The notes under the pieces are model-generated. The model was not told where the DNA came from and did no database searches. It was given only the letters and a program-made list of their open reading frames with translations. From NCBI GenBank assembly GCA_964522405.1, contig CAZFTR010000004.1, positions 22,349-86,348 on the forward strand: a stretch of 64,000 nt of DNA, in the 5' to 3' direction. Source of the DNA: an uncultured Gammaproteobacteria bacterium. Lineage in GTDB: Bacteria; Patescibacteriota; Patescibacteriia; Magasanikbacterales; UBA922. This document shows positions 3,534 to 50,210 of the stretch, in pieces. The translations under genes were made by a program, and so were the position numbers. Position 1 is the first letter of the stretch. Each line of letters begins with the position of its first letter.

Positions 3534-3554
3534 CGAACGACAAGGGGGAAGGAC

Positions 3555-3935
3555 GTGCATCGCGCTTTCAGACGTGAGCATTGCTCGGCCATATACCAGG
3601 GTGATATGGAAGTCGATCTCGGTCGTCTCACCCCGAGTGAGAGATTCGGCCTAGACGTCCTGTTGCGCCTGTTTCGTGGTCGGATCAAGATGAAGGATAC
3701 GGGCATGGGAAATTCAGCATTGGTCTTCCGCCTCTCGGAACTCCGCTGCAGAATGAACTCGAGAGGGCCGGATCTACAGGATCTGACCGTGGAGACAGGT
3801 CTGAACGGTCACATCACACTCTCGACCGGTGATCCGGAATCGGCTCATCGGATGCGCGTGGACTTCAGCGAACCGCCACCGGACGGCGATCATTCGCGCC
3901 ATCGGCGCGTGTTCCCGCCTGACTGGGCCGTGTGA
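3555..3935 (+). CDS. Hypothetical protein encoded in G+C-rich island A
   Basis: 126-aa ORF with GC3-rich codons (CGC, CTC, GAC) in an A+T-rich neighbourhood. An SD-like tract lies upstream, but only 2 nt from the GTG; the internal ATG at 3606 is an alternative start. No recognisable domain. Confidence 0.35.
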   Translation: MHRAFRREHCSAIYQGDMEVDLGRLTPSERFGLDVLLRLFRGRIKMKDTGMGNSALVFRLSELRCRMNSRGPDLQDLTVETGLNGHITLSTGDPESAHRMRVDFSEPPPDGDHSRHRRVFPPDWAV

Positions 3936-3972
3936 GTTACCCACGGTTCTAGTCCTTCGCTGTCCAAGCATC

Positions 3973-4005
3973 GCCCCTGGCGCTGGATTTATCCACGCCA
4001 GGGGT
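3973..4005 (+). terminator. G+C-rich hairpin closing island A
   Basis: CCCCTGGCG-ctggatttatcca-CGCCAGGGG, a perfect 9-bp stem, followed by ttcgccatttatat. Confidence 0.5.
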
Positions 4006-4058
4006 TCGCCATTTATATGGGGTATATAGAGCAACTATGGCACTACTACCAAATACCA

Positions 4059-6998
4059 TTAGACACCAAACTCACAAATATCTCGATAATCACAATAACC
4101 ACAGGAAAATTTACTTGGAGCAGCCTTGAAATCTCGTTCATGTATATTATCAATTAAAGCAACCAATTTATCTCTTAATTTTTCTATTTGTTTATCTTCG
4201 CCAGTAAATTCTGCTTTTATATTATCATTGAGATACCAAAAAGTAAGTGTTCCAACCGGACCAATATTTCGATATTCCGGCAGACTCTGCGCTGCAATTT
4301 GATAAATTAAAAGCTGCTCCTTATCATCAGCAGTTAATTTCTCTTTTGATTTTCCGGTTTTATAATCAATTATATCCAAATTCCCTTCTGAATTCTGATC
4401 AATTCGGTCAATCTTACCACGAAGAAGATAATCCCCTACTTTGATTTTAAAACCACTTTCAATCTTTACTGGAACTGTCCAATTTCCTTCTTGAGCAGCA
4501 TAAAAAACTCGTAATATTTCTTTTCCTTTTTTAAAATAATCCTCTCTTTGTCTTTTTGATTTATACCAATCGCCTATCCAGGATTTCTCATAAATTTCAA
4601 GCAGTTCATCAAGTGATGGTACAGAAACTTGATCAGTTTTTTCTTTTTTGGGAGAGCTATCAAAAAGTGATCCTTGATTGGCACTGTTTAGCTCAACTAC
4701 TCTTTCGTAAAATTTCTGAAGCGTATTATGAATTGTGTTTCCAAAACTAAAGCTTGCACTTCCACGAGCTGGGATTTTTAAAATATGCTGTAATTTATAT
4801 TTATAAGGACAAGTATCATAAGTTTTAACCTGCGAAAAAGAAAAGGCCTTGGGAATTTCATATACAAATTCTGATTTCTCTTGATTGTTTTTGCTTGGTT
4901 CAGATATAACTCCACTCTCCTTACCAACGACTTGATTTCCACTATCTTCAACACCAGTCTCTCCTATAAATCTACTTGCTTTCTTTTTTCTAGCTCCACC
5001 ATAATCTATAGAGCTGACCATAAATAATCTCTTTTTTGCTCGAGTCATGGCAACATAGAACAATCTTCTCTCTTCCTGGATATGTGCATCACCTTCCGGA
5101 AGCTGCTCCCTTACTAATTGATCTGGAATCTGAATATCTCCCCCTCGTCTCCGACTTGGTATACGATCTTCAACCATGTTAACCACAAAAACATACTTGT
5201 ATTCAAGACCTTTGGACTTATGAATGGTCATAATATTAACACTGTCAGGCGTATCAACTGGCTGAAACATAATACCCTGATCTCCAGACTCGATAACTGC
5301 ATTGAAATATTCTACAAAATGAGAAACATTTGAGTCTCCAATTGCAGATTCATATTTATCAAGAAAACCAAAGAATTGCTGAAGCTGATAAATCTGGCGG
5401 ATTACTTTGCCATTTCCTTGATCTTCCTCGTGAGTTAGATACGTTAGATAGCCACTTTTTTCCAAAAAATTAAAAAGTGCACGACTGGTTTTCTCATATC
5501 TGGAATCTTTCATTCCAGAGTGAAGTAAATCAATTACTTTGTCACAAACAGCAATCCCCTCTTTTGAAACTCCAAATTGAGCTGCTCGTTTTAATGCTTC
5601 ATAATAAGTTACACTTTTTTTACCTTTTTGATGGGTTATTTTCTGCAAATCTGATTCTCTAAGCTCAAGAAAGGGCATTTTCAACAATCTAAATATGCCA
5701 TGCTGTTCATGATAATTATTTATAGATCGTAGAAAACTCATGCAATCAAGTACAATTGGCTGGCGATAAAGCCCGGCTGAAGCAATATATTCATAAGGAA
5801 TCTTTGCTGACTCAAGCGCATTTACAAATGGCTCAACATGACTGTTGGCTCGAACCAAAATTGCAAAATCATCCCAAACAGCTTCTTTATCCTGCTCTTT
5901 TATCTCAACAATTTTCTCAAGCACTCCTCTAGCCTCATTTTCAAGCTTATCAAAACATAGATGCTGTACTTTTTGAACTTGGTTTTTCTCGCTATTAATT
6001 TTTGAAACTAATTTTTTATCAATTTTCAATTTCTCTTCCAATCTATCTGGATTGTTGTTTTGAATAAGCTCATAAGCTGAATCAAGAATCTCCTGAGCTG
6101 AGCGATAATTTTCAGTTAAAACAATTTCTTTGGCTTTTGGATAATCATCTTTGAAACGCATGATATTACTAACACTGGCTCCACGAAAGGCATAGACACT
6201 CTGATCATCGTCACCTACCACAGTTAATTTTGAATTTTCAGCCAGTAATTTAACAAATTCGTACTGAGCATAATTAACATCTTGAAATTCATCTACCAGA
6301 ATATACTTATATTGATTTTGTAATTGCTTTTTAATATTTTCTCTATCTTGTAAGAGTTTAACTGTATAAAAAATTAGGTCACCAAAATCTAAAGCATTTT
6401 TATCTAATAATAATTGATTGTACCTGTGATAAGCGCTTGCAATTTCAGTAAGTCTGGTTTTTTCATCCATACTTGCTGAATCTTTTTCTAACTTCAATTC
6501 CTCTGCATAATCCAGATATTCTTGCGGTGTGATAAGTTCATCTTTGCATTTTGAAAAATGCTTGAGAAAACCATGAATATTTTTCATTGGATTTCCAAGA
6601 GGTCGATAATAATCCAACTCAAAATCATACAGGTGTTCGCGCATCAAGAGCCAAGCCTCTGTATCTGAAACTAATTTAAATTCATTTGGCAAACCAATAT
6701 TCAAACCATAATGTTCAAGAATTCTTTGGCAAAATCCATGAAAGGTTGAGATTTGCACGTCAGTATAGCCAGTATCAAGTAACTGATCCACTCGCTCTTG
6801 CATCTCATTAGCTGCGTTTTCATTGAAAGCCAGTGCCAAAATTTCTTCTGGTTTAGCCAGACCCCTTTTTACAATATCTGCAATTTTTTCAGTAATTACA
6901 GTGGTTTTTCCAGTTCCTGCTCCGGCAATAATAAGGAGTGGACCGTCATGGTATTCAACAGCTTGTTTTTGTGATTTGTTTAGCGATTTTTCAGCCAT
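4059..6998 (-). CDS. UvrD/PcrA-family helicase fused to a C-terminal RecB/Cas4-like nuclease domain with Cys cluster (AddA-like)
   Basis: Walker A AGAGTGKTT, the UvrD motifs and C-terminal CGYCDYRDIC. Confidence 0.85.
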   Translation of the reverse strand: MAEKSLNKSQKQAVEYHDGPLLIIAGAGTGKTTVITEKIADIVKRGLAKPEEILALAFNENAANEMQERVDQLLDTGYTDVQISTFHGFCQRILEHYGLNIGLPNEFKLVSDTEAWLLMREHLYDFELDYYRPLGNPMKNIHGFLKHFSKCKDELITPQEYLDYAEELKLEKDSASMDEKTRLTEIASAYHRYNQLLLDKNALDFGDLIFYTVKLLQDRENIKKQLQNQYKYILVDEFQDVNYAQYEFVKLLAENSKLTVVGDDDQSVYAFRGASVSNIMRFKDDYPKAKEIVLTENYRSAQEILDSAYELIQNNNPDRLEEKLKIDKKLVSKINSEKNQVQKVQHLCFDKLENEARGVLEKIVEIKEQDKEAVWDDFAILVRANSHVEPFVNALESAKIPYEYIASAGLYRQPIVLDCMSFLRSINNYHEQHGIFRLLKMPFLELRESDLQKITHQKGKKSVTYYEALKRAAQFGVSKEGIAVCDKVIDLLHSGMKDSRYEKTSRALFNFLEKSGYLTYLTHEEDQGNGKVIRQIYQLQQFFGFLDKYESAIGDSNVSHFVEYFNAVIESGDQGIMFQPVDTPDSVNIMTIHKSKGLEYKYVFVVNMVEDRIPSRRRGGDIQIPDQLVREQLPEGDAHIQEERRLFYVAMTRAKKRLFMVSSIDYGGARKKKASRFIGETGVEDSGNQVVGKESGVISEPSKNNQEKSEFVYEIPKAFSFSQVKTYDTCPYKYKLQHILKIPARGSASFSFGNTIHNTLQKFYERVVELNSANQGSLFDSSPKKEKTDQVSVPSLDELLEIYEKSWIGDWYKSKRQREDYFKKGKEILRVFYAAQEGNWTVPVKIESGFKIKVGDYLLRGKIDRIDQNSEGNLDIIDYKTGKSKEKLTADDKEQLLIYQIAAQSLPEYRNIGPVGTLTFWYLNDNIKAEFTGEDKQIEKLRDKLVALIDNIHERDFKAAPSKFSCGYCDYRDICEFGV

Positions 6999-7095: not shown

Positions 7096-7124
7096 TTGAC
7101 AAAAGCACTAAAATATGCTATACT
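7096..7124 (+). promoter_or_regulatory. Consensus sigma70-type promoter of island B (TTGACA-N17-TATACT)
   Basis: TTGACA at 7096-7101, a 17-nt spacer, then TATACT at 7119-7124. Confidence 0.5.
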
Positions 7125-7148: not shown

Positions 7149-7661
7149 ATGCTAGTGAACAGATCAGATCGCGGCTGGACTGCCGCCTTCACGGTCGGGA
7201 GCTTGCTCCTGATCGCGATGCTCGTTGTGGACTACACGGTTCATGACCTTAAAATGAGAGAGCTGCACCAGGCCGTCGTCACGGACTTCGACGAGTTGGT
7301 GCCGGGCATGTGCTACGGCATGGAGATCGAGAGCGGCAAGTTCCAGGTGGTCTGCATCCACCAGTCGCGGAACTGCCCGGACCCCAAGTCCGACGACTAC
7401 GGCGTGGTCAAGCCAAGCGAGTGCCGCCTCGAACGCCCCGAATGCATCGAGTCGGCCAAGGTCACCGAGTTCGGCGCCCTGCAGTACCCTCAGTGGGTGG
7501 TGGTTGGCGAGAGCTACGAGATCTCGGGAAGCCGCCACACCCTCGACCTCGACGACCAGGACTACTGCGTGTTCACGCCCCACAAGTGGCCTGAGCCGTC
7601 CGACGAGTGGGAGTGGCAGGACGTCATCGAGGACACCGGGGACTCCCCCGACGCGCAATAG
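7149..7661 (+). CDS. Hypothetical signal-anchored Cys-containing protein with acidic C-terminus (G+C-rich island B)
   Basis: AAAGGAAA SD at 7141-7148, then ATG 7149 or GTG 7155 (the ORF-track TTG at 7128 has no SD). Contains an N-terminal TM helix (WTAAFTVGSLLLIAMLVV) and six Cys, with GC3-rich codons. Confidence 0.45.
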   Translation: MLVNRSDRGWTAAFTVGSLLLIAMLVVDYTVHDLKMRELHQAVVTDFDELVPGMCYGMEIESGKFQVVCIHQSRNCPDPKSDDYGVVKPSECRLERPECIESAKVTEFGALQYPQWVVVGESYEISGSRHTLDLDDQDYCVFTPHKWPEPSDEWEWQDVIEDTGDSPDAQ

Positions 7662-7792
7662 CGCAATCCGGCATCCTGCCGGGGCAGCGCGAGATGTGCG
7701 AGATTTTGACGACGAACGACGCCGCCCATCCCGAACTGCTTGAGCATCTAAAATCTGGAAATTCAAGCGGAGGCGGGATGTGCCGCTTAATT

Positions 7793-7827
7793 TAAAAATC
7801 CTACTCATTGTAGGATTTTTATTTTGT
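7793..7827 (+). terminator. Rho-independent terminator of island B
   Basis: AAAATCCTAC-tcatt-GTAGGATTTT followed by TATTTT. Confidence 0.6.
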
Positions 7828-7836
7828 ATGAATTTG

Positions 7837-8601
7837 TTATCTTCTAGTATCTTCTCCGAGTAAAACTCTATCTACGAATTTCTTTATAAGTGAATTGGAG
7901 TCTGGTGTTGGCTTGGCATTTTCAGCAATTTGTCTAAGCTCTTCTGCTGCTGATTCATCAGAATAATACCTGTCTACATATCTGGTAATTCTAGCTATCA
8001 GGTCTTGATCATCCACTTCTGGATGAAACTGTGTTGCATAAAACGGCTTGTCTTTTAGCTTTATGGCATGGATCGGACATTTCTCACTCGAAGCCAGAAG
8101 TATAGCTCCATCTGGAATTGACTCTGCCCTCTCCCTATGACCTGACACTGCTTGAAAACCATCTGGAATATCATGAAAAAGTAAATCTTTGTTAGCTTCT
8201 TCTGTTTTCTTGATTGGATAGGTACCCATTTCCATATTTTCTTCATCAACAATAACTTTTTTTCCAAGAGCTTCGGTAACACACTGAAAACCAAAACAAG
8301 AAGCAAAAACCGGAATTGAATTATCTGCACAATATTTTATTAATTTTTTGGAAGACTCTACAAATGGATATTTCTCCGGTTGAATAACTGAAGCATCACT
8401 TGAGCCACCAACAAAAAGTGCATCATAACCAGCGATAATATCTGATTCAAATTCTGGAGTATCAAAAACATTCAAAATAGTGAATTGATTTTTATCTAAT
8501 TCACTATACCTAACAAATTCTTCAAATTCTTCATTCTTTGTTACTTCATCATCACGAATTTGCATGTATAGAATTTTTAAATCTCCTCTTTTTTTATTCA
8601 T
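7837..8601 (-). CDS. Class I glutamine amidotransferase-like protein
   Basis: Catalytic Cys in SCFGFQ and His in QFHPE, a GATase1 signature, with a ~60-aa C-terminal extension. Confidence 0.7.
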   Translation of the reverse strand: MNKKRGDLKILYMQIRDDEVTKNEEFEEFVRYSELDKNQFTILNVFDTPEFESDIIAGYDALFVGGSSDASVIQPEKYPFVESSKKLIKYCADNSIPVFASCFGFQCVTEALGKKVIVDEENMEMGTYPIKKTEEANKDLLFHDIPDGFQAVSGHRERAESIPDGAILLASSEKCPIHAIKLKDKPFYATQFHPEVDDQDLIARITRYVDRYYSDESAAEELRQIAENAKPTPDSNSLIKKFVDRVLLGEDTRR

Positions 8602-10670: not shown

Positions 10671-10696
10671 AAAAAACCGGCTTATGCCGGTTTTTT
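10671..10696. terminator. Bidirectional intrinsic terminator
   Basis: AAAAAACCGGC-ttat-GCCGGTTTTTT. Confidence 0.6.
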
Positions 10697-10706
10697 GGAG
10701 TCAATT

Positions 10707-10886
10707 CTATTCTGCTGGATCTACTGGAGTTTCTCCCCCACCTTCTGGCATTGGAGCTACTTGCTCTCCACCTGCTTGAGTAGACATTTCTCCGCTTCCA
10801 CATGAGCATGTGCTACAAGCTGAACATCCACCACACTCCATGCATGCTGGACCGCTACAACTTGCGCAAGTCTTTAATTCTTCCAT
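10707..10886 (-). CDS. Small Cys-rich (metallothionein-like) protein, not present in the supplied ORF track (59 aa)
   Basis: The reverse-complement translates to MEELKTCASCSGPACMECGGCSACSTCSCGSGEMSTQAGGEQVAPMPEGGGETPVDPAE, with 10 Cys in the first 30 residues. A terminator lies immediately downstream. Confidence 0.45.
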   Translation of the reverse strand: MEELKTCASCSGPACMECGGCSACSTCSCGSGEMSTQAGGEQVAPMPEGGGETPVDPAE

Positions 10887-10965
10887 AGAAAAATTAAGGT
10901 TAAAAATATGTAATAAAGTATAGATTAGAAAAAACCTTTCGTCAAATTTGGATAAATTTCCTTTG

Positions 10966-10999
10966 CTGCACCCGAATCGCCGAAGCGAGACGGGTGCAG
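10966..10999 (-). terminator. Hairpin at the 3' end of the island C gene
   Basis: CTGCACCCG-aatcgccgaagcgagac-GGGTGCAG, a 9-bp G+C-rich stem. Confidence 0.4.
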
Positions 11000-11048
11000 C
11001 GTGAATCAGTAAAAAATCCTGGTGAAAAACCCGGTAGGACCTCGAGTT

Positions 11049-11354
11049 CTAGATGAAGTCGTGCTTGCGACACTTGCGCACCATGTGCAGCGCGCCGTCG
11101 ATGCGCATTGCCGGAATGCCGAGCGCGTAACGCACAACCTTACAGCCGACTTCGCCCAACTGCTCGTAGGCGAGAGCGATCCTGCTCTCCTGACCAAAGA
11201 TCCACTTCACAGCCGAGCACTCGAGAGCAGTGACCCTCTCATTCGCCGTCCCGATGGCCATGATTCCGTCGAGCGTCAACTCTCCGATGACCACAGCGCA
11301 GTCTTGAACCACCAGCTCGCCCATGAACAGAGCACTTCCCAATACTTCTTTCAT
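11049..11354 (-). CDS. Hypothetical protein of G+C-rich island C (101 aa, begins MKEVLGSALFMGELVV...)
   Basis: ATG at 11354 is preceded by GGGGGG and by TTGACA-N16-TATTAT. The longer track start at 11369 lies upstream of the SD. GC3-rich codons. Confidence 0.45.
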   Translation of the reverse strand: MKEVLGSALFMGELVVQDCAVVIGELTLDGIMAIGTANERVTALECSAVKWIFGQESRIALAYEQLGEVGCKVVRYALGIPAMRIDGALHMVRKCRKHDFI

Positions 11355-11385: not shown

Positions 11386-11413
11386 ATAATAGCTCATTTA
11401 TATTTATTGTCAA
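11386..11413 (-). promoter_or_regulatory. Consensus promoter of the island C gene (TTGACA-N16-TATTAT, read on the minus strand)
   Basis: -35 at 11408-11413 and -10 at 11386-11391 (reverse-complement). Confidence 0.45.
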
Positions 11414-11437
11414 CCCTGGCGTTCGCGAACGCCAGGG
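11414..11437. repeat. Perfect 24-bp palindrome CCCTGGCGTTCGCGAACGCCAGGG abutting the island C promoter
   Basis: It shares the CCCTGGCG/CGCCAGGG stem with the island A hairpin and the CGTTCGCG core with the island E palindrome. Confidence 0.6.
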
Positions 11438-11518
11438 TGAACCGAGCAGAAGACAGTACTGAGTCAAAATTAAAAAACTGCCCAAGTGGACAGTTTTTTA
11501 GAAGTAATTCTTCTTTAG

Positions 11519-13038: not shown

Positions 13039-13067
13039 TTTACAAGTAAGTAGAAATATGCTAGGAT
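13039..13067 (+). promoter_or_regulatory. Candidate promoter of island D (TTTACA-N17-TAGGAT)
   Basis: Lies upstream of the GGGAGG SD at 13087-13092. Confidence 0.35.
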
Positions 13068-13102: not shown

Positions 13103-13849
13103 ATGTTTCTTTTGGAATTCACGAAAAAGCACCCCTACCTGGTAATCGCCAGTGTGGCTCTGACCACTCTGCTGATTGCTGCCATGGTGATGATTCAGCA
13201 GAGGATCGATACCAGCAAGGAGCGGATCGCGACTGCATGTCTCGAGAGAATCGCCAACCCCTGCACCTTCTACAAGGTCTCAGACTCGGGCTACACCTGT
13301 GAGAAGTGGCACGTCGCCGACGGCACTGATTGCAAACAGAGCGCCTGCATGACAGGCGACTGTGTCTGCAAGGACGGCAAGCCGACTTCCGACTCCTGGC
13401 GGGACTGCTCTTCGCCGAGCGATCCCTGTCGGGTCGACGTTTGTGTTCCTGACGACGCTGAAGAGCTGGGCTACAGATGCGTGCCCGGGGTGCATGAGGA
13501 CCGGAATCGCAAGATCTGGCTCGATCACAAGCCCGACTTCACCCCCTGCCTGGACGATGGCATCTGCATCGGACGTACCTGCATTGGCCCCGAAGGTCGC
13601 GTGCTGGCTCCACTACCGATCAAGTTCACCGAAACCAAGGCTCGGGACATGCCGACAGGCTTCGAGCTCAATCTCTGCGGGAACTGCCATCGCTACAGCT
13701 ACGACTGGAACTACAGCGGTCCTGTCACCTGTGGCAGCTGCCACCTGGAAGGCGCCGACATGCTCAACCGATCATCCGATAGACTGCTCTGGCATCTCGA
13801 GATCGAGGAAGGGCTGCCGGCCAAAGAGTTCCTGGGGGAGGTGATGTAA
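13103..13849 (+). CDS. Signal-anchored Cys-rich protein with two CxxCH motifs (putative dihaem c-type cytochrome), G+C-rich island D
   Basis: GGGAGG lies 10 nt before the ATG at 13103 (the ORF-track start at 12998 lies in A+T-rich DNA upstream of the SD). One TM helix, then 20+ Cys including CGNCH and CGSCH. GC3-rich codons. Confidence 0.4.
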   Translation: MFLLEFTKKHPYLVIASVALTTLLIAAMVMIQQRIDTSKERIATACLERIANPCTFYKVSDSGYTCEKWHVADGTDCKQSACMTGDCVCKDGKPTSDSWRDCSSPSDPCRVDVCVPDDAEELGYRCVPGVHEDRNRKIWLDHKPDFTPCLDDGICIGRTCIGPEGRVLAPLPIKFTETKARDMPTGFELNLCGNCHRYSYDWNYSGPVTCGSCHLEGADMLNRSSDRLLWHLEIEEGLPAKEFLGEVM

Positions 13850-13978: not shown

Positions 13979-14007
13979 AAAAAACTCGCTTATTGCGAGT
14001 TTTTTTA
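13979..14007. terminator. Bidirectional intrinsic terminator (end of the atp operon)
   Basis: AAAAAACTCGC-ttat-TGCGAGTTTTTTT. Confidence 0.6.
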
Positions 14008-14046: not shown

Positions 14047-14472
14047 TTACTTCCTATACTTCTTCCCCACTCTAATCCTATTCATTTCTCGATCAATAAC
14101 TGCTTGAAGTTTTGCAAAATCAACATTTGATTCTTTTCCAGCTTTTTCCAGCTGTTCTTGTGCACGTTTTCTTGCTGCTTCTGCTCTATCCAGATCAATA
14201 TCCCCTGCTCGCTCTGCGTTGTCTGCAAGAATTATAATTTCACTATTTCCCCGAACTTCCAGAAATCCACCAGCAACTGCTATTGGATGCTCACCATCCT
14301 TATCTTTTATTTTCAATTCTCCAGCTTGTAAAACCGAAATTATTGGAATATGCATTGGAAGAACTGTAATCTCGCCTTCCATTGTTGGAATTGTAACTTG
14401 AAAAATCTCATCTTCGTAAACTACTGATTCAGGTGTTACAATTTTGAATTTTAGGATTTGTTCTTTTTTCAT
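14047..14472 (-). CDS. atpC: F1 ATP synthase epsilon subunit
   Basis: 141 aa; N-terminal beta-sandwich and C-terminal helical hairpin, with conserved epsilon residues. Confidence 0.85.
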   Translation of the reverse strand: MKKEQILKFKIVTPESVVYEDEIFQVTIPTMEGEITVLPMHIPIISVLQAGELKIKDKDGEHPIAVAGGFLEVRGNSEIIILADNAERAGDIDLDRAEAARKRAQEQLEKAGKESNVDFAKLQAVIDREMNRIRVGKKYRK

Positions 14473-14594: not shown

Positions 14595-16773
<2,179 letters not shown>

Positions 16774-16776: not shown

Positions 16777-17706
16777 CTATAATGCCGCTGCACCTGCTGC
16801 AATCTCCGCAATCTCCTGCGTGATTCCAGCCTGTCTAGCTTTGTTAAAACTTAAAGTTAATTCATCAATCAATTCTCCAGCATTTTCACTGGCATTTTTC
16901 ATTGCTACCATTCTTGCTGAATGTTCTGATGCTGTTGACTCTAGAACTGCCTGCAATAATTGTGATTCAACTAATCTTGGTAAAACATTTTCTATTATTA
17001 CTTTCACATTTGGTTCAAATTCATAGGCATCAATATCTTCTTCTACTTTTTCCTCTTTAGTATTTTTTGCATCTTCACCAATTTCATCTATCATCTTATC
17101 TATATCAACCGAAGAGACTGGCAAAAGTTGTCTAACTTCTGCAACCTGTTCTAAACTCGATTTAAAATTTGTATAAAAAACTACCACTTTATCGTATTTT
17201 TTTTCTTTAAATTCACTAATCATGATCTTTGTAATTGGCAGAATATTTTCCAGGCTTGGTTTTTCACCAATTTCGTCATACATTTGTACAAGATTGTAAC
17301 CGTACCTTTTGGCAAAAATTGCTGACTTCTTACCTACTCCTATCAGATCAATTTCAAGTTCAGCATCTGCATCATCAGCTAAAATTTCTTTATTTGATAA
17401 TGTTTGATGAGCTTTTTTGTATAAGTTTGCATTGAAACTTCCGCAAAGCCCTCTATTTGAACTAACCAAAATTGCTAGGACTTTTTTCACAGGCCTCTCC
17501 TCAAGAAGTTCAACTTTATCCATTTCAATTTTACTAAGACGATCAAGAAGGCCTTTTGCTGTAACTGCATATTCACGTGTTGCAAGTGTGGCATCAACTG
17601 CTCGACGCATCTTTGCAGCAGCAACCATCTCCATTGCTTTGGTGATTTTCTTGGTATTGGTCACGGACTTGATTCGTCCTTTAATTGCTTTTGTATTGAC
17701 TGCCAT
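16777..17706 (-). CDS. atpG: F1 ATP synthase gamma subunit
   Basis: 309 aa with conserved gamma N- and C-terminal helices (...ITQEIAEIAAGAAAL). Confidence 0.9.
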   Translation of the reverse strand: MAVNTKAIKGRIKSVTNTKKITKAMEMVAAAKMRRAVDATLATREYAVTAKGLLDRLSKIEMDKVELLEERPVKKVLAILVSSNRGLCGSFNANLYKKAHQTLSNKEILADDADAELEIDLIGVGKKSAIFAKRYGYNLVQMYDEIGEKPSLENILPITKIMISEFKEKKYDKVVVFYTNFKSSLEQVAEVRQLLPVSSVDIDKMIDEIGEDAKNTKEEKVEEDIDAYEFEPNVKVIIENVLPRLVESQLLQAVLESTASEHSARMVAMKNASENAGELIDELTLSFNKARQAGITQEIAEIAAGAAAL

Positions 17707-24332: not shown

Positions 24333-24459
24333 ATTAATCCTTAAATGTAATCAAATTATACAGTAAATTAAAATTTAATGAAATTTTTGACAAAATAATT
24401 AATCTTAAATACTATAAGTTATAGAGACCAAGTCGGCACCCCCGGCAAGGAAAATAGCC

Positions 24460-24588
24460 GTGAGCAAATTCAGAGATAATCCCAAACTGTCGGACAAGCC
24501 TCCTGTGTTCACCATCGAGTGCAATCACTGCTTCGTCCGGATCATGATCTGGGCCAATAGGTGTTGGTACTGCGGCCGCGCTCGATGA
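24460..24588 (+). CDS. Small zinc-ribbon protein (42 aa) in G+C-rich island E
   Basis: AGGAAA lies 7 nt before the GTG. Product is MSKFRDNPKLSDKPPVFTIECNHCFVRIMIWANRCWYCGRAR, with CxxC...CxxC. The overlapping minus-strand track ORF 24412..24603 lacks an SD. Confidence 0.3.
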   Translation: MSKFRDNPKLSDKPPVFTIECNHCFVRIMIWANRCWYCGRAR

Positions 24589-24632: not shown

Positions 24633-24707
24633 AAGCTCGTTCGCGTCGCCAACAATATTTTAAATTCAAATTTTAAAATATTGTTGGAGGAATACGCGAA
24701 CGAGCTT
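24633..24707. repeat. 75-nt nested palindrome at the edge of island E
   Basis: A 13-bp G+C-rich outer stem (AAGCTCGTTCGCG / CGCGAACGAGCTT) encloses a 14-bp A+T-rich inner stem (AACAATATTTTAAA-ttcaaat-TTTAAAATATTGTT). Confidence 0.6.
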
Positions 24708-24715
24708 TTGGTTAC

Positions 24716-24743
24716 AAAAAAAGCACCATGAAATGCTTTTTTT
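24716..24743. terminator. Bidirectional intrinsic terminator
   Basis: AAAGCA-ccatgaaa-TGCTTT flanked by A- and T-runs. Confidence 0.55.
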
Positions 24744-24759
24744 GTCTAAAATATAGATT

Positions 24760-25296: not shown

Positions 25297-25373
25297 ATTA
25301 ATCTATTGCTTTAATATTTAAAATGTGATATTTTTAGCGCTGTAATCCAGACTCGAGACAGGAGAAAGCCATC

Positions 25374-25706: not shown

Positions 25707-25744
25707 GCAGAAGGAGGCTTCAGAACCTACGATCGCACCCCCAC

Positions 25745-25776
25745 CCCCGTGTCTGTTCTCGAGAAGACGCGGGGGC
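25745..25776 (+). terminator. G+C-rich hairpin closing island F
   Basis: CCCCCGTGTCT-gttctcgag-AAGACGCGGGGG (one mismatch), followed by cagacagacttttctt. Confidence 0.45.
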
Positions 25777-27332: not shown

Positions 27333-27361
27333 TTGTTTAGTGTGTTTTTTTATGATATAAT
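27333..27361 (+). promoter_or_regulatory. Plus-strand promoter-like element TTGTTT-N17-TATAAT pointing into G+C-rich element G
   Basis: The hexamers overlap the region just upstream of the metG start codon, on the opposite strand. Confidence 0.3.
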
Positions 27362-27600: not shown

Positions 27601-27602
27601 CT

Positions 27603-37005: not shown

Positions 37006-38382
37006 CTAGTTAATTGTCTTTAGAGAAGTTCTGGCAATTTCTCGATCATCCCAAGGAATCATTTTACCACCAGCAACACACATTCTTTGTTCACTTCCTT
37101 TTCCGGTTATCAAAATCATATCGCCCTTTTTTGCCAGCTCTATTGCTTTTTTGATTGCTTGTTTTCGATCAAGCACTTTGAATAAGGTCTCATCTTCAAC
37201 TTTTCCTGCTTCAAGAGCAGCACGAGCTACATCATCTATTATTTCCATAGGATCATCATCGTAAGGATCTTCATCTGTAACTATACAAATATCTGCTTTT
37301 TCTCCTACAAATTCACCCACTGTAAATCTCCTCTTAATATCACGGCCTCCACCTGTTGAACCAAAGACATGGATAATTCTCTCTGGCTCAAGCAATTCTA
37401 CAACCTGATAAAGTGCTTTCATAGCTCCCGGCTCAAAAGCATAGTCAACAATCACACTAAATCCATGCTCTTCTGCTTCCTCTATAAATTCATTTCTTCC
37501 TGGAGCATTTTTTAACCGATTTACTGCTTTTTTAGTGATTTCAGGATCAATATTCAAAATTTTTGCAATAGATACTGCTACTGCACAATTCCAGGCATTA
37601 TGCTCTCCATAAATCACCGGATCAAAACTCTGATCATCTATTTTAAAATGAAGACCTTTTTTGTCTACTGAAATTTCTGAAAGTTTGAATTGACCATCTA
37701 TACTCTCCAAATTAGATTTTTTTGTTCCAAAAGTATAAATTGTATCAAAAACAGCCCCCTCAATAAATTCCTGAGCATACTTAGAATCACCATTTAATAA
37801 AGCTACTTTAGGTAATTCAGAACAACATCCTTTTTGTAAATTTTTAAATCCAATCTTTTCTATGGTTTTACCACCATGAAAATAAGTACTTGCGTCTACA
37901 AAAATATCAATTTTAGCTTTTTTATAATTTTCAAAACTTCCATGAGACTCGATATGCTCTGGATAAAGATTGGTCAAGACCATCAGATCATATGCAATAA
38001 ACTTATGCCTATACTGAACACGCCCCTCTGAAGTGGTCTCTACAATAGCAATGTCGCATCCGGCATCAACCATTTCTCGTAAGTATTTCTGGGTTTGCAT
38101 TTTTCCGAGCATAGTCATCTTCTGGTCATTGAGCTTGTTTTCTCCGGCAATATAAAAGTCAATTGTTGAAAGTGAACCAACTTTGTATCCAGCTGATTCA
38201 AGAACCTGTCTCAAAAACAAAACAGAAGTAGATTTTCCACTGGTCCCAGTAATTCCAATTACAAATAGTTCTTTTGAAGGGTGAGAGTACTTGTGAGCGC
38301 CATACCAAGCATAGAAAAAATGGCGAAGATTAAAAACCTTCTTAGGAAATATTTTTTTTAATATTTTTATAAAAAAATTCAT
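37006..38382 (-). CDS. Mur ligase family protein (MurE-like)
   Basis: P-loop GITGTSGKSTS and a Mur ligase central/C-terminal layout. The start is MNFFIKIL at 38382; the 107-aa N-terminal extension in the ORF track runs through G+C-rich island H and is not credible. Confidence 0.75.
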   Translation of the reverse strand: MNFFIKILKKIFPKKVFNLRHFFYAWYGAHKYSHPSKELFVIGITGTSGKSTSVLFLRQVLESAGYKVGSLSTIDFYIAGENKLNDQKMTMLGKMQTQKYLREMVDAGCDIAIVETTSEGRVQYRHKFIAYDLMVLTNLYPEHIESHGSFENYKKAKIDIFVDASTYFHGGKTIEKIGFKNLQKGCCSELPKVALLNGDSKYAQEFIEGAVFDTIYTFGTKKSNLESIDGQFKLSEISVDKKGLHFKIDDQSFDPVIYGEHNAWNCAVAVSIAKILNIDPEITKKAVNRLKNAPGRNEFIEEAEEHGFSVIVDYAFEPGAMKALYQVVELLEPERIIHVFGSTGGGRDIKRRFTVGEFVGEKADICIVTDEDPYDDDPMEIIDDVARAALEAGKVEDETLFKVLDRKQAIKKAIELAKKGDMILITGKGSEQRMCVAGGKMIPWDDREIARTSLKTIN

Positions 38383-38390
38383 GATTTCTA

Positions 38391-38419
38391 TTGACAAACT
38401 GATTTTTTTGAGTATACTT
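38391..38419 (+). promoter_or_regulatory. Consensus promoter TTGACA-N17-TATACT of island H, immediately divergent from the Mur ligase start codon
   Basis: Same hexamers as the island B promoter; 38391-38396 and 38414-38419. Confidence 0.45.
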
Positions 38420-38424
38420 TTGGC

Positions 38425-38634
38425 ATGCGGTCTATGAAGTACGCACTCCCGATTAAGTTCGGGGATCTGCCAATGTGGTCGCGGTTCCAGTTCAGCGGAA
38501 CCTCGCGCTGGATCAAGACTGGTCACAAGTCCGCTGCGACGCTGACACCGGCGCCTCGTAGCTCCACCTTCTCCAACTCCTGTGGCGCGCCGCGCCGAGT
38601 GGATAGGTGCACGACCGTCTTCCCCTGCATCTAG
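38425..38634 (+). CDS. Questionable small ORF (69 aa) in G+C-rich island H
   Basis: It follows the consensus promoter but has no SD, and the product is low-complexity and S/R/T-rich. The island may instead be noncoding. Confidence 0.2.
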   Translation: MRSMKYALPIKFGDLPMWSRFQFSGTSRWIKTGHKSAATLTPAPRSSTFSNSCGAPRRVDRCTTVFPCI

Positions 38635-38676
38635 GGACACCTGATCCGTCTCTCGAAGCATCAATGATCGCCGCTG

Positions 38677-38700
38677 CCGGGGGTTCTTCGGAACCCCTGG
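38677..38700. other. Very stable hairpin with a UUCG tetraloop at the distal edge of island H
   Basis: CCGGGGGTTC-ttcg-GAACCCCTGG, 10 bp with one G·U pair, and no flanking T-run. Confidence 0.5.
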
Positions 38701-38777
38701 CAAAACTCATAATTGAACTAATCTCTAGATAAAATCTAGAGATTTTTTATCACAATTTAGCTAAATTTGCAATAGAT

Positions 38778-39356
38778 CTACTTATCGCTTCGCAAACTAA
38801 GATCATAGACAATCCCTTCTATTTTTCTACTAGCTTGCTTTGCTTGATCAAATTTCGTTCTTAGATATCTGGTTAAATCAAATTCTATGAGCTCGCCAAT
38901 AATTTTCTCTGCCATTTCTGCACATTTTTGTACTGTTTGATGGTCTTTTACAGTTGCTGCTCTTACAGCGTATCTCTGCAGCTCTCCAGGCACGTCACAA
39001 AGCCCAGCCAGATATAACTCTGGAACAATTTCAAAATCTTTTATAGTTCCGATTTTACCTGTTTTAACAAACTGCATCATAAGTACCGCCTCAACATACT
39101 CCTCTACTCCAGCCTTGTATGCACCCTCTTGGGTGATCTCTGGATTTTTCTGATATTTTTTATGAAGTGCTTTGAAAATTCCCAAAGCTTCTTTTATTTT
39201 TAACTCAGCTTCTTTTAGATTTCCCCGATGGATAGCAAAAATCGCTCTTTTGGAGTGATGAAGCGCGTCACCTGATAACTTAATTATATCTCTCCTGATA
39301 AGGGCGTATTGGTGAAGTCCTTTTTTGATTGAACGTAGGTTTTTCTTATCTAGCAT
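38778..39356 (-). CDS. Hypothetical protein (possibly translin-like)
   Basis: 192-aa helical ORF; YLAGLCDVPGELQRYAVRA is reminiscent of translin, but the similarity is weak. Confidence 0.4.
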   Translation of the reverse strand: MLDKKNLRSIKKGLHQYALIRRDIIKLSGDALHHSKRAIFAIHRGNLKEAELKIKEALGIFKALHKKYQKNPEITQEGAYKAGVEEYVEAVLMMQFVKTGKIGTIKDFEIVPELYLAGLCDVPGELQRYAVRAATVKDHQTVQKCAEMAEKIIGELIEFDLTRYLRTKFDQAKQASRKIEGIVYDLSLRSDK

Positions 39357-39379: not shown

Positions 39380-42076
39380 TTAAACTATTTTGCGCTCTTT
39401 GACAATAAAAATACCCTTTACAATTTCTATCAAGGTGATATTTAAAAGACCAAACAGCAATAGGACTAACCAATAATTAATTGACAATGGCACAGTTCGC
39501 AGCAAAGTCTGTAAAATAGGTAAATGCACAGCACCTATAAGCAGAAGCCACCCAAATAATAATGAATAGTTAAGATACTTATTTCCAAACAGATTCATTT
39601 GCCAAATATGATACCTCATACTTCTAACTGAGTAGATGTAGAGTAATGAATCAATACCAAGTCCCACAAAAATAATTGTTCTAGTTAACTCAATATTGCC
39701 GGTTGTCTTGTAAAAATAAATAAATAATCCCAGCAAAACAATATTTGAAACTATGGTGATAATTGCAATCATATACTTCATTTCTTTATCAATAATCGGC
39801 TCGTTTTTCTTTCTTGGGTTTTTTTTCATATTTTCTTTTTCACTCTCATCAAATGCTAGCGCCATATTTGGAAAAGCATCTTCAACAATATTTACCCATA
39901 AAATTTGAGCCGGTAAAACTGCCAGTGGCATGCCCAGTACAAGACTTGCAGCAATCAGTATAACCTCTGCAAAACTCCCTGAAAGCAGATACAAAACAAC
40001 CTTTTTGATATTTTGATAAATTCCCCTACCCTCTTCTACTGAAGAAACAATAGTACTATAGGCATTGTTCATAAGAACTATATCAGCTGACTCCTTGGCA
40101 ACATCTGTTCCAGAACCAAGAGCAACGCCAATATCTGCGGCCTTGATAGCTGGAGCATCGTTTACTCCATCTCCTGTCATGGCCACCACATCACCATTTG
40201 CCTGAAAAGCCCTAACAATACGAATTTTATGAACCGGATCAACCCGAGCAAAAATACTTACATTCTTAACAGCAGAACGCAATTCAACATCGCTCATATG
40301 TTCAAGCTGCTGCCCATCAAAAATATTGTTAATATTATGAGATAAACCAATCTGCTTGGCAATTGATTGAGCTGTTTTGACATGATCTCCAGTAATCATT
40401 ACTGTCTTGATTCCAGCAGTATGAGCAAGAGAAATAGTTTGACTAACCTCAGCGCGAATTGGATCAGAAAGAGCAGCCAAACCAACAAAAACCAAATTTT
40501 CTATTTGATTATCACTTAATTTATCCTGTTTTTTGGCAGACTGTTTATAAGCAAGAGCAATAACCCGAAGTCCTTTTTCAGTTAATTTCCTGTGCTTTTC
40601 TTCAAAAAAACCAATTTGCTTAGCTGTCATTTTCTGAGCTTTTCCATCTTTCTCAAAAAAACCAGATTTGGAAAGCAAAATTTCAGGTGCACCCTTTATA
40701 TAAGTTATATATTCATGATCTATATTTTCAAGTTTAGCAATGTACTTTCTTTCACTGGAAAAAGGAATTTCATCAATTTTTTTCATTGAAGACTCAAGTG
40801 ATTCCTTGGTGTAGCCAATATTCAATCCAGCATAGAGAAATGCACTATCAGTACTGTCTCCGACAAATTCAATATGGGCGCGTTGATCATTTGCTGGCAA
40901 ACTAACAGCATCATTTGCTATGACACCGATTTTAATAGCAAAAACTGCATCTTCATGCTTTCCAGGCTTTTCAGCACTTAAGCTCTTAATTTTATCAAAG
41001 TCCAAATGATCATTTTCAGTAATTATCTGGGTAACTCTCATTTTTCCTTCGGTAATAGTCCCGGTTTTGTCTGTACAAATAACATTTACTGATCCAAGAG
41101 TTTCAGCTGCTACCAACCTACGCACAAGTGCCTTTCGTTTGAGAATATTTCTCATACCAACAGCCAAAATAACAGTCAAAGTAATTGCCATACCCTCAGG
41201 AATAGCAGCAACAGCAAGAACAACAGCAATTTCAAACATTTCTACGACACTATGATGAATTTTGGTTGTAAAAATTCCAAATAAAAAAATAAGGGAAGAA
41301 ATAGAAACAACAATAATTGCAATATACTTACTCAATCTTCCCAGTTGAATCTGCAAAGGCGTCTTATCTTCTTTGGTTTCTTTTACAAGAGAGGCAATTT
41401 TGCCAATTTGAGTTTTACTACCAGTTTCAGTTACCACAATTACTGCTCGTCCATTTAGGATTATAGTTCCTCGGTGGAGCATATTTTTGCGATCAGCCAT
41501 GTTAGTTTTCTCAGCAATCTTGTTTTTGTGCTTTGAAACCGGCTCAGACTCACCAGTTAGTGAAGACTCATCCACCTCACAATCAACAGCCTCAATAATT
41601 CGTCCATCAGCCTGTATTTTATCCCCTGCCTCAAGAATTAGAATATCTCCTTGGACAACAAGCTTACTACTTATATATTCTTTTTTTCCGGCTCGAAGCA
41701 CCAGAGCCTTACTCTCAATCATCTGATGTAATTTTTTTAGAGATTCATTTGCCTTGTCTTCTTGTATAAACCCGACAACCGTATTCATAGCAACAGTTAT
41801 GAAAATAACTGTCATATCCAAAACCTCTCCCACTAAACCGCTAACAACTCCGGCAATCAGAAGAATAAGAATAAGCGGACTGGTAAATTGGTCAAAGAAA
41901 ATCTTGACTCTACTACTTATTTCTCCAGAGCTGGGCAGAGTATTGGGTCCAAAAAAATTAAGCCTTTTTTCAGCGGCTTTGTCAGAAAGTCCATCCTTGG
42001 AACTATTTACCTCCTCGAGAACCTGTGATATACTTTTTGAGTAAAAATCCATAAAATATGTACAAAATCTTGACAT
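39380..42076 (-). CDS. Cation-transporting P-type ATPase (P2A, Ca2+/Mg2+ type)
   Basis: DKTGTIT phosphorylation site, MITGDHVKTAQ and GDGVNDAPAIK. Confidence 0.9.
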   Translation of the reverse strand: MSRFCTYFMDFYSKSISQVLEEVNSSKDGLSDKAAEKRLNFFGPNTLPSSGEISSRVKIFFDQFTSPLILILLIAGVVSGLVGEVLDMTVIFITVAMNTVVGFIQEDKANESLKKLHQMIESKALVLRAGKKEYISSKLVVQGDILILEAGDKIQADGRIIEAVDCEVDESSLTGESEPVSKHKNKIAEKTNMADRKNMLHRGTIILNGRAVIVVTETGSKTQIGKIASLVKETKEDKTPLQIQLGRLSKYIAIIVVSISSLIFLFGIFTTKIHHSVVEMFEIAVVLAVAAIPEGMAITLTVILAVGMRNILKRKALVRRLVAAETLGSVNVICTDKTGTITEGKMRVTQIITENDHLDFDKIKSLSAEKPGKHEDAVFAIKIGVIANDAVSLPANDQRAHIEFVGDSTDSAFLYAGLNIGYTKESLESSMKKIDEIPFSSERKYIAKLENIDHEYITYIKGAPEILLSKSGFFEKDGKAQKMTAKQIGFFEEKHRKLTEKGLRVIALAYKQSAKKQDKLSDNQIENLVFVGLAALSDPIRAEVSQTISLAHTAGIKTVMITGDHVKTAQSIAKQIGLSHNINNIFDGQQLEHMSDVELRSAVKNVSIFARVDPVHKIRIVRAFQANGDVVAMTGDGVNDAPAIKAADIGVALGSGTDVAKESADIVLMNNAYSTIVSSVEEGRGIYQNIKKVVLYLLSGSFAEVILIAASLVLGMPLAVLPAQILWVNIVEDAFPNMALAFDESEKENMKKNPRKKNEPIIDKEMKYMIAIITIVSNIVLLGLFIYFYKTTGNIELTRTIIFVGLGIDSLLYIYSVRSMRYHIWQMNLFGNKYLNYSLLFGWLLLIGAVHLPILQTLLRTVPLSINYWLVLLLFGLLNITLIEIVKGIFIVKERKIV

Positions 42077-42121
42077 TTAATGGATTATAGTATATCATAT
42101 TGCTTACTTACTATAAACAGC

Positions 42122-42194
42122 GGTCCGGTAGCTCAGCTGGTAGAGCAGCAGCCTTTTAAGCTGATGGTCGTGGGTTCGAGCCCCACCCGGATCA
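42122..42194 (+). tRNA. tRNA-Lys (anticodon UUU)
   Basis: 73-nt cloverleaf with acceptor GGTCCGG/CCGGATC, GTTCGAGCC T-arm and anticodon loop CTTTTAA. Followed by an AAAACTCTGCAT-tatg-CAGAGTTTT terminator. Confidence 0.85.
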
Positions 42195-42731
42195 CATTTT
42201 AAAACTCTGCATTATGCAGAGTTTTAGATTTTACCATTTAGAGTCGTCAGGCGCCTTTTTGAAATTAACTGCTTATATTTGCTTATCTAGACCCTCTCCA
42301 AGGTCGTTCATTTTTTGGATTTGCATTAAATACAATCTCCTCTATCTCTCGCAACTTTTGAGCCACTGCATCATTAGCTTCGGTAGGAAGATTTGCAGAT
42401 GCTTTCATCTTCAATTCAACATAAGCATTCATTACACCTTCGAAATCCCCACCACCTTCTTGAATGGCAGCGACCCTCTCATGATGTGCTTATAATCCTT
42501 CTGACATATTTTCAGTTTAAAAATTATAAATAAACCATATCAGATTATGAGTATCATTGCAATAATATTTGATTTTCTACCAATTAGGCAAATTAAGATA
42601 TAAGGCATACGTTGTTTTACTAATATCAAGCTGTTAATACATCCAATCAGTTTTTTATCATGCTCTAAAGTGTTCCAGCCTAATCCCAAATAAATCAGAT
42701 ATCATCGCCCTGCGGGCTACGTCATGGGAGC

Positions 42732-48298: not shown

Positions 48299-48358
48299 AA
48301 TTCTTATATTTTATTTATTATGTTAAACATCTTAGCAGATTTAGCTCAAATAAGCAAA

Positions 48359-49563: not shown

Positions 49564-49732
49564 AGTATGTTTTTTGTGTGTTTCTCAAATGAAGTTTGAG
49601 AAAATTTATAAATCGACCTTGTCGATTGGAAACGTCCTATGTCGAAGACAAATTCTCGTTGCCAATTGGTCTCTATAGTAGCATAAAATGAAGAAAAATG
49701 CAAGGGTGGCTGTTAATAAGAAATTAAATTCT

Positions 49733-49760
49733 TGACAAACCTCGTTTTTTATGCTATTTT
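49733..49760 (+). promoter_or_regulatory. Promoter of island I (TTGACA-N16-TATTTT)
   Basis: Lies upstream of the AGAGGAGAA SD at 49827-49835. Confidence 0.4.
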
Positions 49761-49840
49761 CAGATATCAATGATCCGAAACTCTAATGTTTTCGCTGTGC
49801 ACAAAAATTGCTCATAACGAGAACCTTAGAGGAGAACCTG

Positions 49841-50059
49841 ATGGTTGTCACCATCATCCAAGTAGTAATGGTTGTTCTCATGTTTCTGGCCGGCCTCTGT
49901 CTGATCATTGATGGCGCGCTCCGGGTTTTCAAGCCCAGCCTCAGCCACAGGCAGATGATTCCTCGAGCCGACTACTGGAAGCAGCGCATGGCAGGACTGA
50001 TCGAGATGGCTGTTGGCTCTGCCCTGCTCGCCATCCTGCTGACCATTGCACTGGTCTGA
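49841..50059 (+). CDS. Small two-TM membrane protein (72 aa) in G+C-rich island I
   Basis: GAGGAG lies about 6 nt before the ATG at 49841 (the ORF-track start at 49808 lies upstream of the SD). Product is MVVTIIQVVMVVLMFLAGL...LLAILLTIALV. GC3-rich codons. G+C-rich hairpins GGCTGCG/CGCAGCC follow at 50080-50101. Confidence 0.45.
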   Translation: MVVTIIQVVMVVLMFLAGLCLIIDGALRVFKPSLSHRQMIPRADYWKQRMAGLIEMAVGSALLAILLTIALV

Positions 50060-50210
50060 AACATGAAACAACTGATTCGGCTGCGCCGCAGACGCAGCCT
50101 CGCTCATTCTGGGGCTTTCTCCCCACCAACCACAACAAGGAGGTGAGGACGAACTCTGCACTCGTCCCTCCGAATATTTTCAGTAGTTATAATGCAAATT
50201 GAGGAGTATT

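Follow-up and report, generated by a model that had tools for sequence, protein, structure and literature searches.

Nine short G+C-rich islands (I1–I9) interrupt the A+T-rich DNA of a 64,000-nt stretch of contig CAZFTR010000004.1. We call this whole stretch the window and number positions from its first letter; features lie on the plus strand unless stated otherwise. In the reading that we favour, and to which we give about an even chance, the islands are autonomous, moron-like single-gene expression units of foreign-looking composition, lodged in intergenic gaps of a Magasanikbacteria chromosome. Each unit has an A+T-rich sigma70-type promoter-like site, usually a short leader with a Shine–Dalgarno (SD) sequence, one open reading frame (ORF) of 42–248 aa and a G+C-rich stem-loop in the 3' untranslated region (UTR).

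The genes flanking the islands are cellular (F1F0 ATP synthase operon, MetG, Mur ligase, TypA, P-type ATPases and a PcrA/UvrD-type helicase). The closest relatives of the MetG protein, 69–73% identical, come from metagenome-assembled genomes (MAGs) of Candidatus Magasanikbacteria and other Patescibacteria (GTDB genomes and JGI metagenomes). Judged from these genes, the host is a bacterium of the candidate phyla radiation (CPR), Candidatus Magasanikbacteria.

Composition and anatomy of the islands

The window has an overall G+C content of 36.3%. The nine islands sum to 4,117 nt (6.4% of the window) with a G+C content of 58.3%, against 34.8% for the remainder. Non-island segments of 300 nt average 0.350 (standard deviation 0.038, maximum 0.467), and the islands lie 3.9–7.9 standard deviations above this mean. 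At every island boundary, measured over 100 nt across each, G+C steps from 0.14–0.38 outside to 0.43–0.63 inside. A 100-nt scan recovered exactly the nine islands of the initial annotation, whose coordinates agree within about 50 nt, together with a borderline patch at 10676–10890 and minor bumps within genes and at the tRNA; the abrupt switches from A+T-rich to G+C-rich DNA described there are thus confirmed.

Codon usage changes with composition. G+C at third codon positions (GC3) is 0.65–0.89 in the best ORFs of the islands and 0.12–0.36 in host ORFs, and synonymous choice is the inverse of that of the host (TAC 100% vs 22%, TTC 87% vs 16%, ATC 80% vs 14%, AAG 80% vs 25%). Codons that are rare in the host (<10% of their synonymous family) make up 19–34% of island codons but 5.6% of those in host genes. 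The GC3-rich, host-rare codons proposed initially are therefore real, and since neither G+C nor codon usage proved uniform, the compositional claim stands. Cysteine accounts for 4.3% of residues in island products and 0.6% in host proteins, a seven-fold enrichment.

The G+C-rich segment is asymmetric: it begins at most about 30 nt before the start codon and extends 70–140 nt beyond the stop codon, so that the 3' UTRs are G+C-rich as well as the codons. Read directly from the sequence, most island ORFs open with 6–13 codons of host-like, A+T-rich type. All nine islands are intergenic, in agreement with their initial placement outside host genes; a 565-aa ORF that overlaps I8 (37006–38703) is a read-through extension of the Mur-ligase gene, which has a plausible start near 38382.

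We searched both strands of the window for sigma70-type sites, scored over 12 positions. Only six sites reach at least 11/12, and three of these stand 7–32 nt upstream of the I2, I3 and I8 ORFs on the correct strand. Among the 57 sites of at least 10/12, six are upstream of islands, compared with about 0.5 expected. The additional 10/12 sites precede I1, I5 and I9; for I4, I6 and I7 the candidates are weaker or of the extended –10 type. The gene for tRNA-Lys(UUU) (42070–42195) is preceded by an 11/12 match (TTGACA-N17-TATCAT), which shows that near-consensus promoters like those ahead of the islands mark genuine, strongly expressed genes in this genome. Among the promoters listed initially, those at 7096 (TTGACA-N17-TATACT) and at 11413–11386 on the minus strand (TTGACA-N16-TATTAT) stand as described; the site at 38391 has a spacer of 16 nt, not 17, and that given as 49733 starts at 49732 with a spacer of 17 nt, not 16.

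An SD sequence lies 5–11 nt ahead of the start codon in all islands but I8. The ATG of I8 follows its –10 element by 7 nt, so its mRNA may be leaderless. The proposed combination of SD sequence, short ORF and G+C-rich hairpin is accordingly present, except that I8 has no clear SD sequence. The G+C-rich 3' stem-loops mostly lack a clean U-tract; at I2, I4, I5, I8 and I9, the island is separated from the convergent host gene by an A+T-rich intrinsic terminator hairpin. Of the nine units, eight lie on the plus strand within minus-strand gene arrays, and I3 is the only island gene on the strand of its neighbours. With other CPR loci included, 14 cases with co-directional flanks could be scored, and in 12 of them the island gene is opposite to the flanks (6:1 both in the window and in the other loci; p ~0.01, a binomial estimate by hand in which the count outside the window includes the homologous pair of loci L097 and L102).

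The nine units and their predicted products

Codon-position G+C periodicity is significant in I1–I6, I8 and I9 (p <= 0.023; in six of them, none of 1,000 shuffles reached the observed value). We conclude that these eight islands are likely protein-coding. ORF length is unremarkable for G+C-rich DNA, except in I4 (p = 0.008) and I2 (p = 0.05).

In I1, a promoter-like site TTGACA-N18-TAAATT (3478–3507; 10/12) lies 48 nt upstream of an orphan ORF of 126 aa (3555–3935), which begins with GTG behind the SD sequence GGGGGAAGGA (G+C at codon positions 1/2/3 of 0.65/0.47/0.65; periodicity p = 0.009) and is followed by the G+C-rich hairpin CCCCTGGCG-N13-CGCCAGGGG (3974–4004). The promoter-like site of I2, TTGACA-N17-TATACT with TG (7096–7124; 11/12), precedes a 170-aa ORF (7149–7661; 0.62/0.38/0.89) with six cysteines and an N-terminal hydrophobic segment (maximum KD19 2.03). 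Its G+C-rich 3' UTR (7668–7793) contains small hairpins at 7668–7682 and 7760–7793 and runs up to an A+T-rich bidirectional intrinsic terminator (7793–7821) shared with a convergent GATase gene (7837–8601, minus strand). I3 is read from the minus strand: its site TTGACA-N16-TATTAT (11386–11413; 11/12), with a G+C-rich hairpin on the upstream side (11413–11438), is followed by a 101-aa ORF (11049–11354; 0.60/0.39/0.75) and a 3' G+C-rich hairpin (10965–11000).

The site of I4 is weaker (TTTACA-N17-TAGGAT with TG, 13039–13067; 9/12). Its ORF spans 248 aa from the ATG at 13103 (13103–13849; 0.55/0.46/0.75), gene callers placing the start at 13058 or 12998, and encodes one transmembrane (TM) helix and then a domain with 18 cysteines; the bidirectional terminator at 13979–14005 is common to I4 and atpC (14047–14472, minus strand). 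I5 has a site TTGACA-N17-TACTAT (24387–24415; 10/12), a 42-aa ORF with GTG behind AAGGA and a CxxC-N11-CxxC pattern (24460–24588; GC3 0.71; periodicity p = 0.023), and a long nested hairpin (24633–24707; arms 24633–24646/24694–24707 and 24649–24664/24672–24687) ahead of a terminator at 24714–24745. Upstream of I6, only a weak site TTGCTT-N17-TGaTATTTT was read by eye (25306–25334); the ORF of 110 aa (25374–25706; 0.66/0.55/0.82) has an AGGAGA SD sequence and a basic N-terminus, and its 3' G+C-rich hairpin (25744–25775) is followed by a T-rich tract.

I7 is a G+C-rich segment (53%; 27375–27615) without codon periodicity or excess fold stability, preceded by a site read by eye as TTGTTT-N17-TGaTATAAT (27333–27361); it is possibly a decayed island or a non-coding transcript. 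The site of I8, TTGACA-N16-TATACT (38391–38418; 11/12), is 9 nt from the likely start codon of the Mur-ligase gene on the opposite strand. It serves an S/T/P/R-rich ORF of 69 aa (38425–38634; 0.43/0.62/0.78), followed by a G+C-rich hairpin (38675–38702) and a shared terminator (38720–38744). In I9, TTGACA-N17-TATTTT with TG (49732–49760; 10/12) precedes a 72-aa ORF with an AGGAGA SD sequence (49841–50059; 0.62/0.35/0.71); its product has a strongly hydrophobic segment at the N-terminus (KD19 3.00) and another hydrophobic one, read by eye, at the C-terminus. Two hairpins in the G+C-rich 3' UTR (50079–50172) are followed by a shared bidirectional terminator (50210–50238).

The I2 and I4 products would be single-pass, membrane-anchored, Cys-rich proteins; that of I9 is probably a small hydrophobic membrane protein with two TM segments, and the CxxC...CxxC pattern of I5 suggests a zinc-ribbon-like peptide. 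I1, I3, I6 and I8 are predicted to encode small soluble proteins, that of I6 being basic and containing cysteine. Together, the products are probably an accessory repertoire that evolves fast and is located largely at the cell envelope. Type I toxin–antitoxin loci pair a hydrophobic peptide of less than about 60 aa with an overlapping antisense RNA; among the island products only I9 resembles such a small membrane peptide, and its 72 aa are above the usual size, the remaining products being either larger or soluble.

None of the island proteins had a credible match in Pfam, NCBIfam, PHROGs or PADLOC, nor did any of the 63 six-frame island segments of at least 45 aa in Pfam. Sequence searches of the PDB with I2 and I4, of IMG/VR with I1, I2, I3, I4 and I6, and of JGI metagenomes with I4 returned no match, and the I2 DNA had none among plasmids. 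An exhaustive phmmer search of I4 against 1.84 billion representatives retrieved I4 itself and one marginal match, P0002 (library-wide E = 3e-4), a Cys-rich repeat protein from a soil contig of 66% G+C that is 35% identical to I4 over 120 aa with the Cys spacing kept. A word index of 5.8 billion proteins gave no match with the concatenated island proteins, missing I4's own entry as well, and none with I2 alone, a weak negative. When queried with a minigene of locus L097, described below, it returned only that minigene and missed its 52%-identical homologue in L102; having failed on known positives, its negatives carry little weight. A 'MAKG(D/E)' N-terminus common to I6 and an island ORF of locus L013 is too short for homology and was rejected.

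The longest ORF of an island is often an antisense shadow frame rich in G+C at the first codon position, as on the minus strand at 25311–25655, 7164–7808 and 49826–50161. These minus-strand ORFs have the pattern and the L/V/R/A/G-rich composition typical of antisense shadows. The gene calls of Logan assemblies chose the minus-strand ORF in I6 and I9; for islands of this kind, protein databases are therefore likely to contain products of the wrong strand. Gene callers thus often pick the wrong strand there.

Beside I3 on the minus strand, a small separate unit (10676–10945) has a G+C content of 50% with host-like GC3 (0.33). It comprises a promoter-like site TTGACG-N17-TATACT (10945–10917), a very Cys-rich 58-aa ORF (10886–10710) beginning MEELKTCASCSGPACMECGGCSACSTCSCGSG and a terminator-like hairpin read by eye (about 10674–10697); its product could be a metallothionein-like or RiPP-like peptide, or the unit an old, ameliorated cassette. 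Within the ATP synthase operon, between the genes for the gamma (16777–17706) and beta (14619–15998) subunits, a 257-aa ORF with host-like codon usage (16000–16773, minus strand) has no credible Pfam match and is also present in Logan contig L001. Three further minus-strand genes encode a 979-aa PcrA/UvrD-type helicase with a C-terminal Cas4/PD-(D/E)XK-like nuclease domain in an AddA-like architecture (4059–6998), a Translin-family protein (38778–39356; E = 4.5e-23) and a protein with a DOT1-like methyltransferase domain (2954–3463; E = 3e-8). The Translin and DOT1-like families are mainly eukaryotic or archaeal.

Origin of the islands

Related CPR loci bear on the question of how the islands arose. 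CPR genomes conserve the gene order TP_methylase-metG-cvpA-tatD, in which the gaps are usually shorter than 200 nt. In the window, all three gaps are filled: cvpA-tatD (275 nt) by I7, metG-cvpA (523 nt) by I6 and TP_methylase-metG (427 nt) by I5; in most relatives they are empty. Locus L003, whose MetG is 69% identical, holds in its cvpA-tatD gap a different G+C-rich orphan ORF on the opposite strand. In 1.5 Mb of A+T-rich CPR sequence, made up of the window and other loci, we counted 85 G+C-rich islands, some of which will be ordinary features such as RNA genes; the window has one per 7 kb and the other loci about one per 19 kb.

Three syntenic Magasanikbacteria loci (L013, L097 and L102; nucleotide identity 68–90% over aligned segments and 74–90% in host-gene segments) have two G+C-rich, opposite-strand minigenes in common at matching positions. 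The first codes for a small membrane protein with 44–51% identity between species, compared with 73–91% for the flanks, and so evolves faster than its neighbours. Its conservation by codon position follows the order 2 > 1 > 3, a coding signature. Conservation is higher in the promoter, the start region and the 3' UTR hairpins than in the body of the ORF. Downstream of this gene lies a highly conserved, structured 3' UTR element (L013 17520–17660; L097 18590–18730; L102 10420–10550; all minus strand), itself more conserved than the ORF, in which a CCTCCC...GGGAGG hairpin is followed by a TCACCCG...CGGGTGA stem with a T-run; it had no Rfam match. In another related locus (L006, 23–3342), a 1,611-bp unit is tandemly duplicated; it carries a G+C-rich gene for a 69-aa, Gly/Ser/Asn-rich basic peptide and a gene for a 365-aa protein with an HxxEH insulinase-type motif, which may form a peptide-plus-peptidase (RiPP-like) pair.

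That the trio minigenes are conserved and inherited at the same sites shows that such units can be functional and pass vertically over substantial divergence, and that G+C-richness alone is no proof of recent acquisition. According to the initial annotation, islands at syntenic positions in relatives would argue against recent acquisition, and the trio minigenes do so by analogy; none of the nine islands itself has a counterpart in related loci. Horizontal acquisition as such is plausible and unproven: composition is not that of the host, whereas no donor was found, and the one marginal relative of I4 lies on a contig of 66% G+C. Among the classical signs of transfer, atypical composition and absence from relatives are both present; a donor is not.

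We propose that the moron-like units derive from G+C-rich sources that lie beyond the part of the gene pool sampled well so far. They would have survived where they were strongly transcribed and insulated, with rapid divergence and slow decay thereafter; I7 may be a remnant of this import and decay. In the opposite orientation, a unit stands tail-to-tail with the terminator of the upstream gene and head-to-head with the promoter of the downstream gene, a placement that would insulate a strongly transcribed unit from its neighbours.

Several observations pull the other way. I7 shows no periodicity at all (p = 1.0), no donor was found for any island in searches of which the exhaustive one covered I4 only, and single-sequence AlphaFold2 models of I3 and I2 are of low confidence (pLDDT 46 and 43). 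Island genes in other CPR loci mostly lack such strong promoter matches. The membrane-protein minigene of the trio keeps a GC3 of 0.75–0.86 despite a third-position identity of 0.45–0.55 (0.5–0.7 in host genes of the trio). By a rough two-state estimate made by hand, it retains more G+C than neutral decay predicts, which points towards G+C-richness being maintained rather than merely imported.

This retention of G+C feeds a serious rival, which we regard as possible if clearly less probable: that the islands are native, vertically inherited, fast-evolving genes whose G+C-richness is maintained, for instance because selection favours stable or RNase-resistant mRNA, because rare codons are used deliberately, or through biased gene conversion. 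The persistence of both trio minigenes at their sites, the retention of GC3 at diverged third positions, and regulatory and 3' UTR elements that outlast the ORF body all speak for it, as do the recurrence of G+C-rich islands about every 19 kb in other A+T-rich CPR loci, the G+C-rich 3' UTRs and the host-like first codons of most ORFs. Against it, the nine islands lack counterparts in related loci and the gaps of I5–I7 are empty in most relatives. The spread of GC3 among islands (0.65–0.89) resembles an age series, and no known mechanism holds 60% G+C in selected patches of 300–900 nt of a 35% G+C genome. A parsimony count of substitutions in the trio shows a net flux from GC to AT in the island (79 vs 58) and the opposite in the flanks, as slow amelioration predicts; because the flank equilibria that it implies are implausible, this crude count is used qualitatively only.

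More doubtful is the wider proposal that G+C-rich orphan minigenes, strongly transcribed and placed on the opposite strand, are a distinct class which Magasanikbacteria maintain, perhaps along with further CPR bacteria. Their composition would then be no transient sign of import, but either be actively maintained, through nucleotide-level selection or biased conversion, or result from a dedicated route of capture from a G+C-rich partner. Were the capture route true, the islands would document at the molecular level which host these episymbionts live with.

It is unlikely that the islands are cassettes moved by a dedicated mechanism, be it integron-like insertion at secondary sites, IS200/605-type hairpin-ended elements or cDNA from a G+C-rich partner. 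The asymmetric G+C-rich segment with its stem-loop does have the shape of an integron cassette or a transcript, each unit holds one ORF, and islands adjoin terminator hairpins. However, comparison of the islands with each other and with 160 related loci found no sequence in common and none repeated, and no island has terminal inverted repeats or target duplications. A regex search of both strands for attC pairs (R'' RYYYAAC and R' GTTRRRY, 40–150 nt apart) found four in the window, none inside an island or within 60 nt of one. A hairpin with CCCTGG recurs in I1, I3, I7 and I8, but overall the islands have no more k-mers in common than shuffled controls. No integrase, transposase or reverse transcriptase was present among about 20 host genes scanned, a subset of those in the window, and Rfam gave no match to a group II intron in the window. 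The islands are also scattered rather than arrayed and have their own promoters. Lacking common sequence, repeats, attC sites and shared k-mers, they are unlikely to depend on a sequence-specific mobilisation system, and the family of small mobile modules suggested initially finds no support.

Less probable still, the islands could be structured non-coding RNAs whose ORFs are incidental. Long open frames are expected by chance in G+C-rich DNA, and ORF length is not significant in seven of the nine; I7 has no coding signal, and the 3' UTR elements of the trio are highly conserved. Fold z-scores of the G+C-rich cores on the ORF strand are –2.9 to –4.2 for I1, I2, I3 and I8, values that seem to owe much to the terminal hairpins; I4, I5, I6, I7 and I9 give about 0 to –1.4. 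No island matched Rfam either at the gathering threshold or at E = 1, where only tRNA-Lys and two chance matches outside the islands appeared. The strong periodicity in eight islands argues for coding, as do SD sequences and start codons correctly placed behind promoters, TM helices and Cys patterns, and the 2 > 1 > 3 conservation of the homologous trio family.

Independent assemblies were sought by exact-sequence look-up of host proteins adjoining islands among Logan contigs. Those retrieved from runs SRR8146440, SRR8146441 and SRR31802803 are 100% identical to the window. Run SRR8146440 fully covers I5 and I6 (contig L002), I8 (L164) and I9 (L165), and SRR8146441 fully covers I1 (L167) and I4 (L083); contig L166 of SRR31802803 ends at 50158 and reaches only the last 18 nt of I9. 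A second assembly thus exists for six islands (I1, I4, I5, I6, I8 and I9), and none was found for I2, I3 and I7. We conclude that the six covered islands do not stem from an error of a single assembly, nor were they planted. Chimeric assembly, or contamination with DNA of a G+C-rich organism, might be suggested by the MAG source and the alien composition of the inserts but is hardly credible given exact matches across both junctions of these six islands (one run each), a run from a differently numbered accession series that reaches the 3' end of I9, and the position of all nine inserts exactly between terminator and promoter with the start codon at the 5' edge. Nor is there support for engineered cassettes, as had also been suggested: the host is an uncultivated CPR bacterium, and six islands are identical in environmental runs.

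CPR bacteria, whose genomes are tiny and which need other cells, have with few exceptions not been cultivated; little is known of how they gain genes and of the proteins by which they contact their hosts. In the 64-kb housekeeping region described here, orphan minigenes with strong promoter-like sites make up about 6%; their composition is opposite to that of the genome, and several have predicted membrane-anchored or Cys-rich products. If they were imported, their composition and codon usage would point to the kind of partner with which DNA is exchanged; if G+C-richness is maintained, it would reflect an unusual gene-specific compositional selection in a bacterium. In either case, the island genes are candidate surface or interaction factors.

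Comparison with known systems

Among known systems, miniature inverted-repeat and insertion-sequence families do not fit, as the islands show no terminal inverted repeats, target duplications, mutual similarity or multiple copies. Integron cassettes, including those at secondary (attG) sites, resemble the islands in holding single small ORFs, mostly orphans, whose 5' leader is very short and which are followed by a stem-loop region. Unlike such cassettes, the islands have no attC consensus and no array, no integrase was present among the neighbours scanned, and each has its own promoter. G+C-rich non-coding RNA islands are known in A+T-rich hyperthermophiles, and these too are sharply bounded intergenic patches with their own promoter and terminator; eight of the nine islands differ from them by coding periodicity with translation signals, none matches Rfam, and most fold no better than shuffled sequence.

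Like lineage-specific ORFan genes and islets, the islands are short, without homologues, atypical in composition and absent from the same gaps in relatives. They lie 20–25 G+C points above the genome, however, with GC3 raised by 0.4–0.6 and near-consensus promoters. Species-specific orphans of prokaryotes normally match genome G+C, and virus-derived ones are lower (PMC11293555), which makes the G+C-rich island genes atypical.

The closest parallel is the phage moron, an autonomous promoter–ORF–terminator unit between adjacent phage genes (PMC4378225). Unlike morons, the islands are carried by a cellular chromosome (with an ATP synthase operon, MetG, Mur ligase and tRNA-Lys), their proteins lack PHROG matches, and nine of them occur within about 47 kb, much G+C-richer than their surroundings and mostly opposite to the flanking genes. 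As in morons, each island comprises a single ORF with its own sigma70-type promoter-like site and a composition unlike that of its neighbours, and the mechanism of acquisition is unknown, with no recombinase target sequences (PMC4378225). Two features of the moron are seen in the window: I5–I7 are inserted between genes that are adjacent in relatives, by the synteny of TP_methylase-metG-cvpA-tatD; and six of the nine islands have a promoter-like site of at least 10/12, three of them 11/12. As to a terminator belonging to the unit itself, most of the 3' stem-loops have no clean U-tract, and I2, I4, I5, I8 and I9 run into an A+T-rich hairpin beside the convergent host gene.

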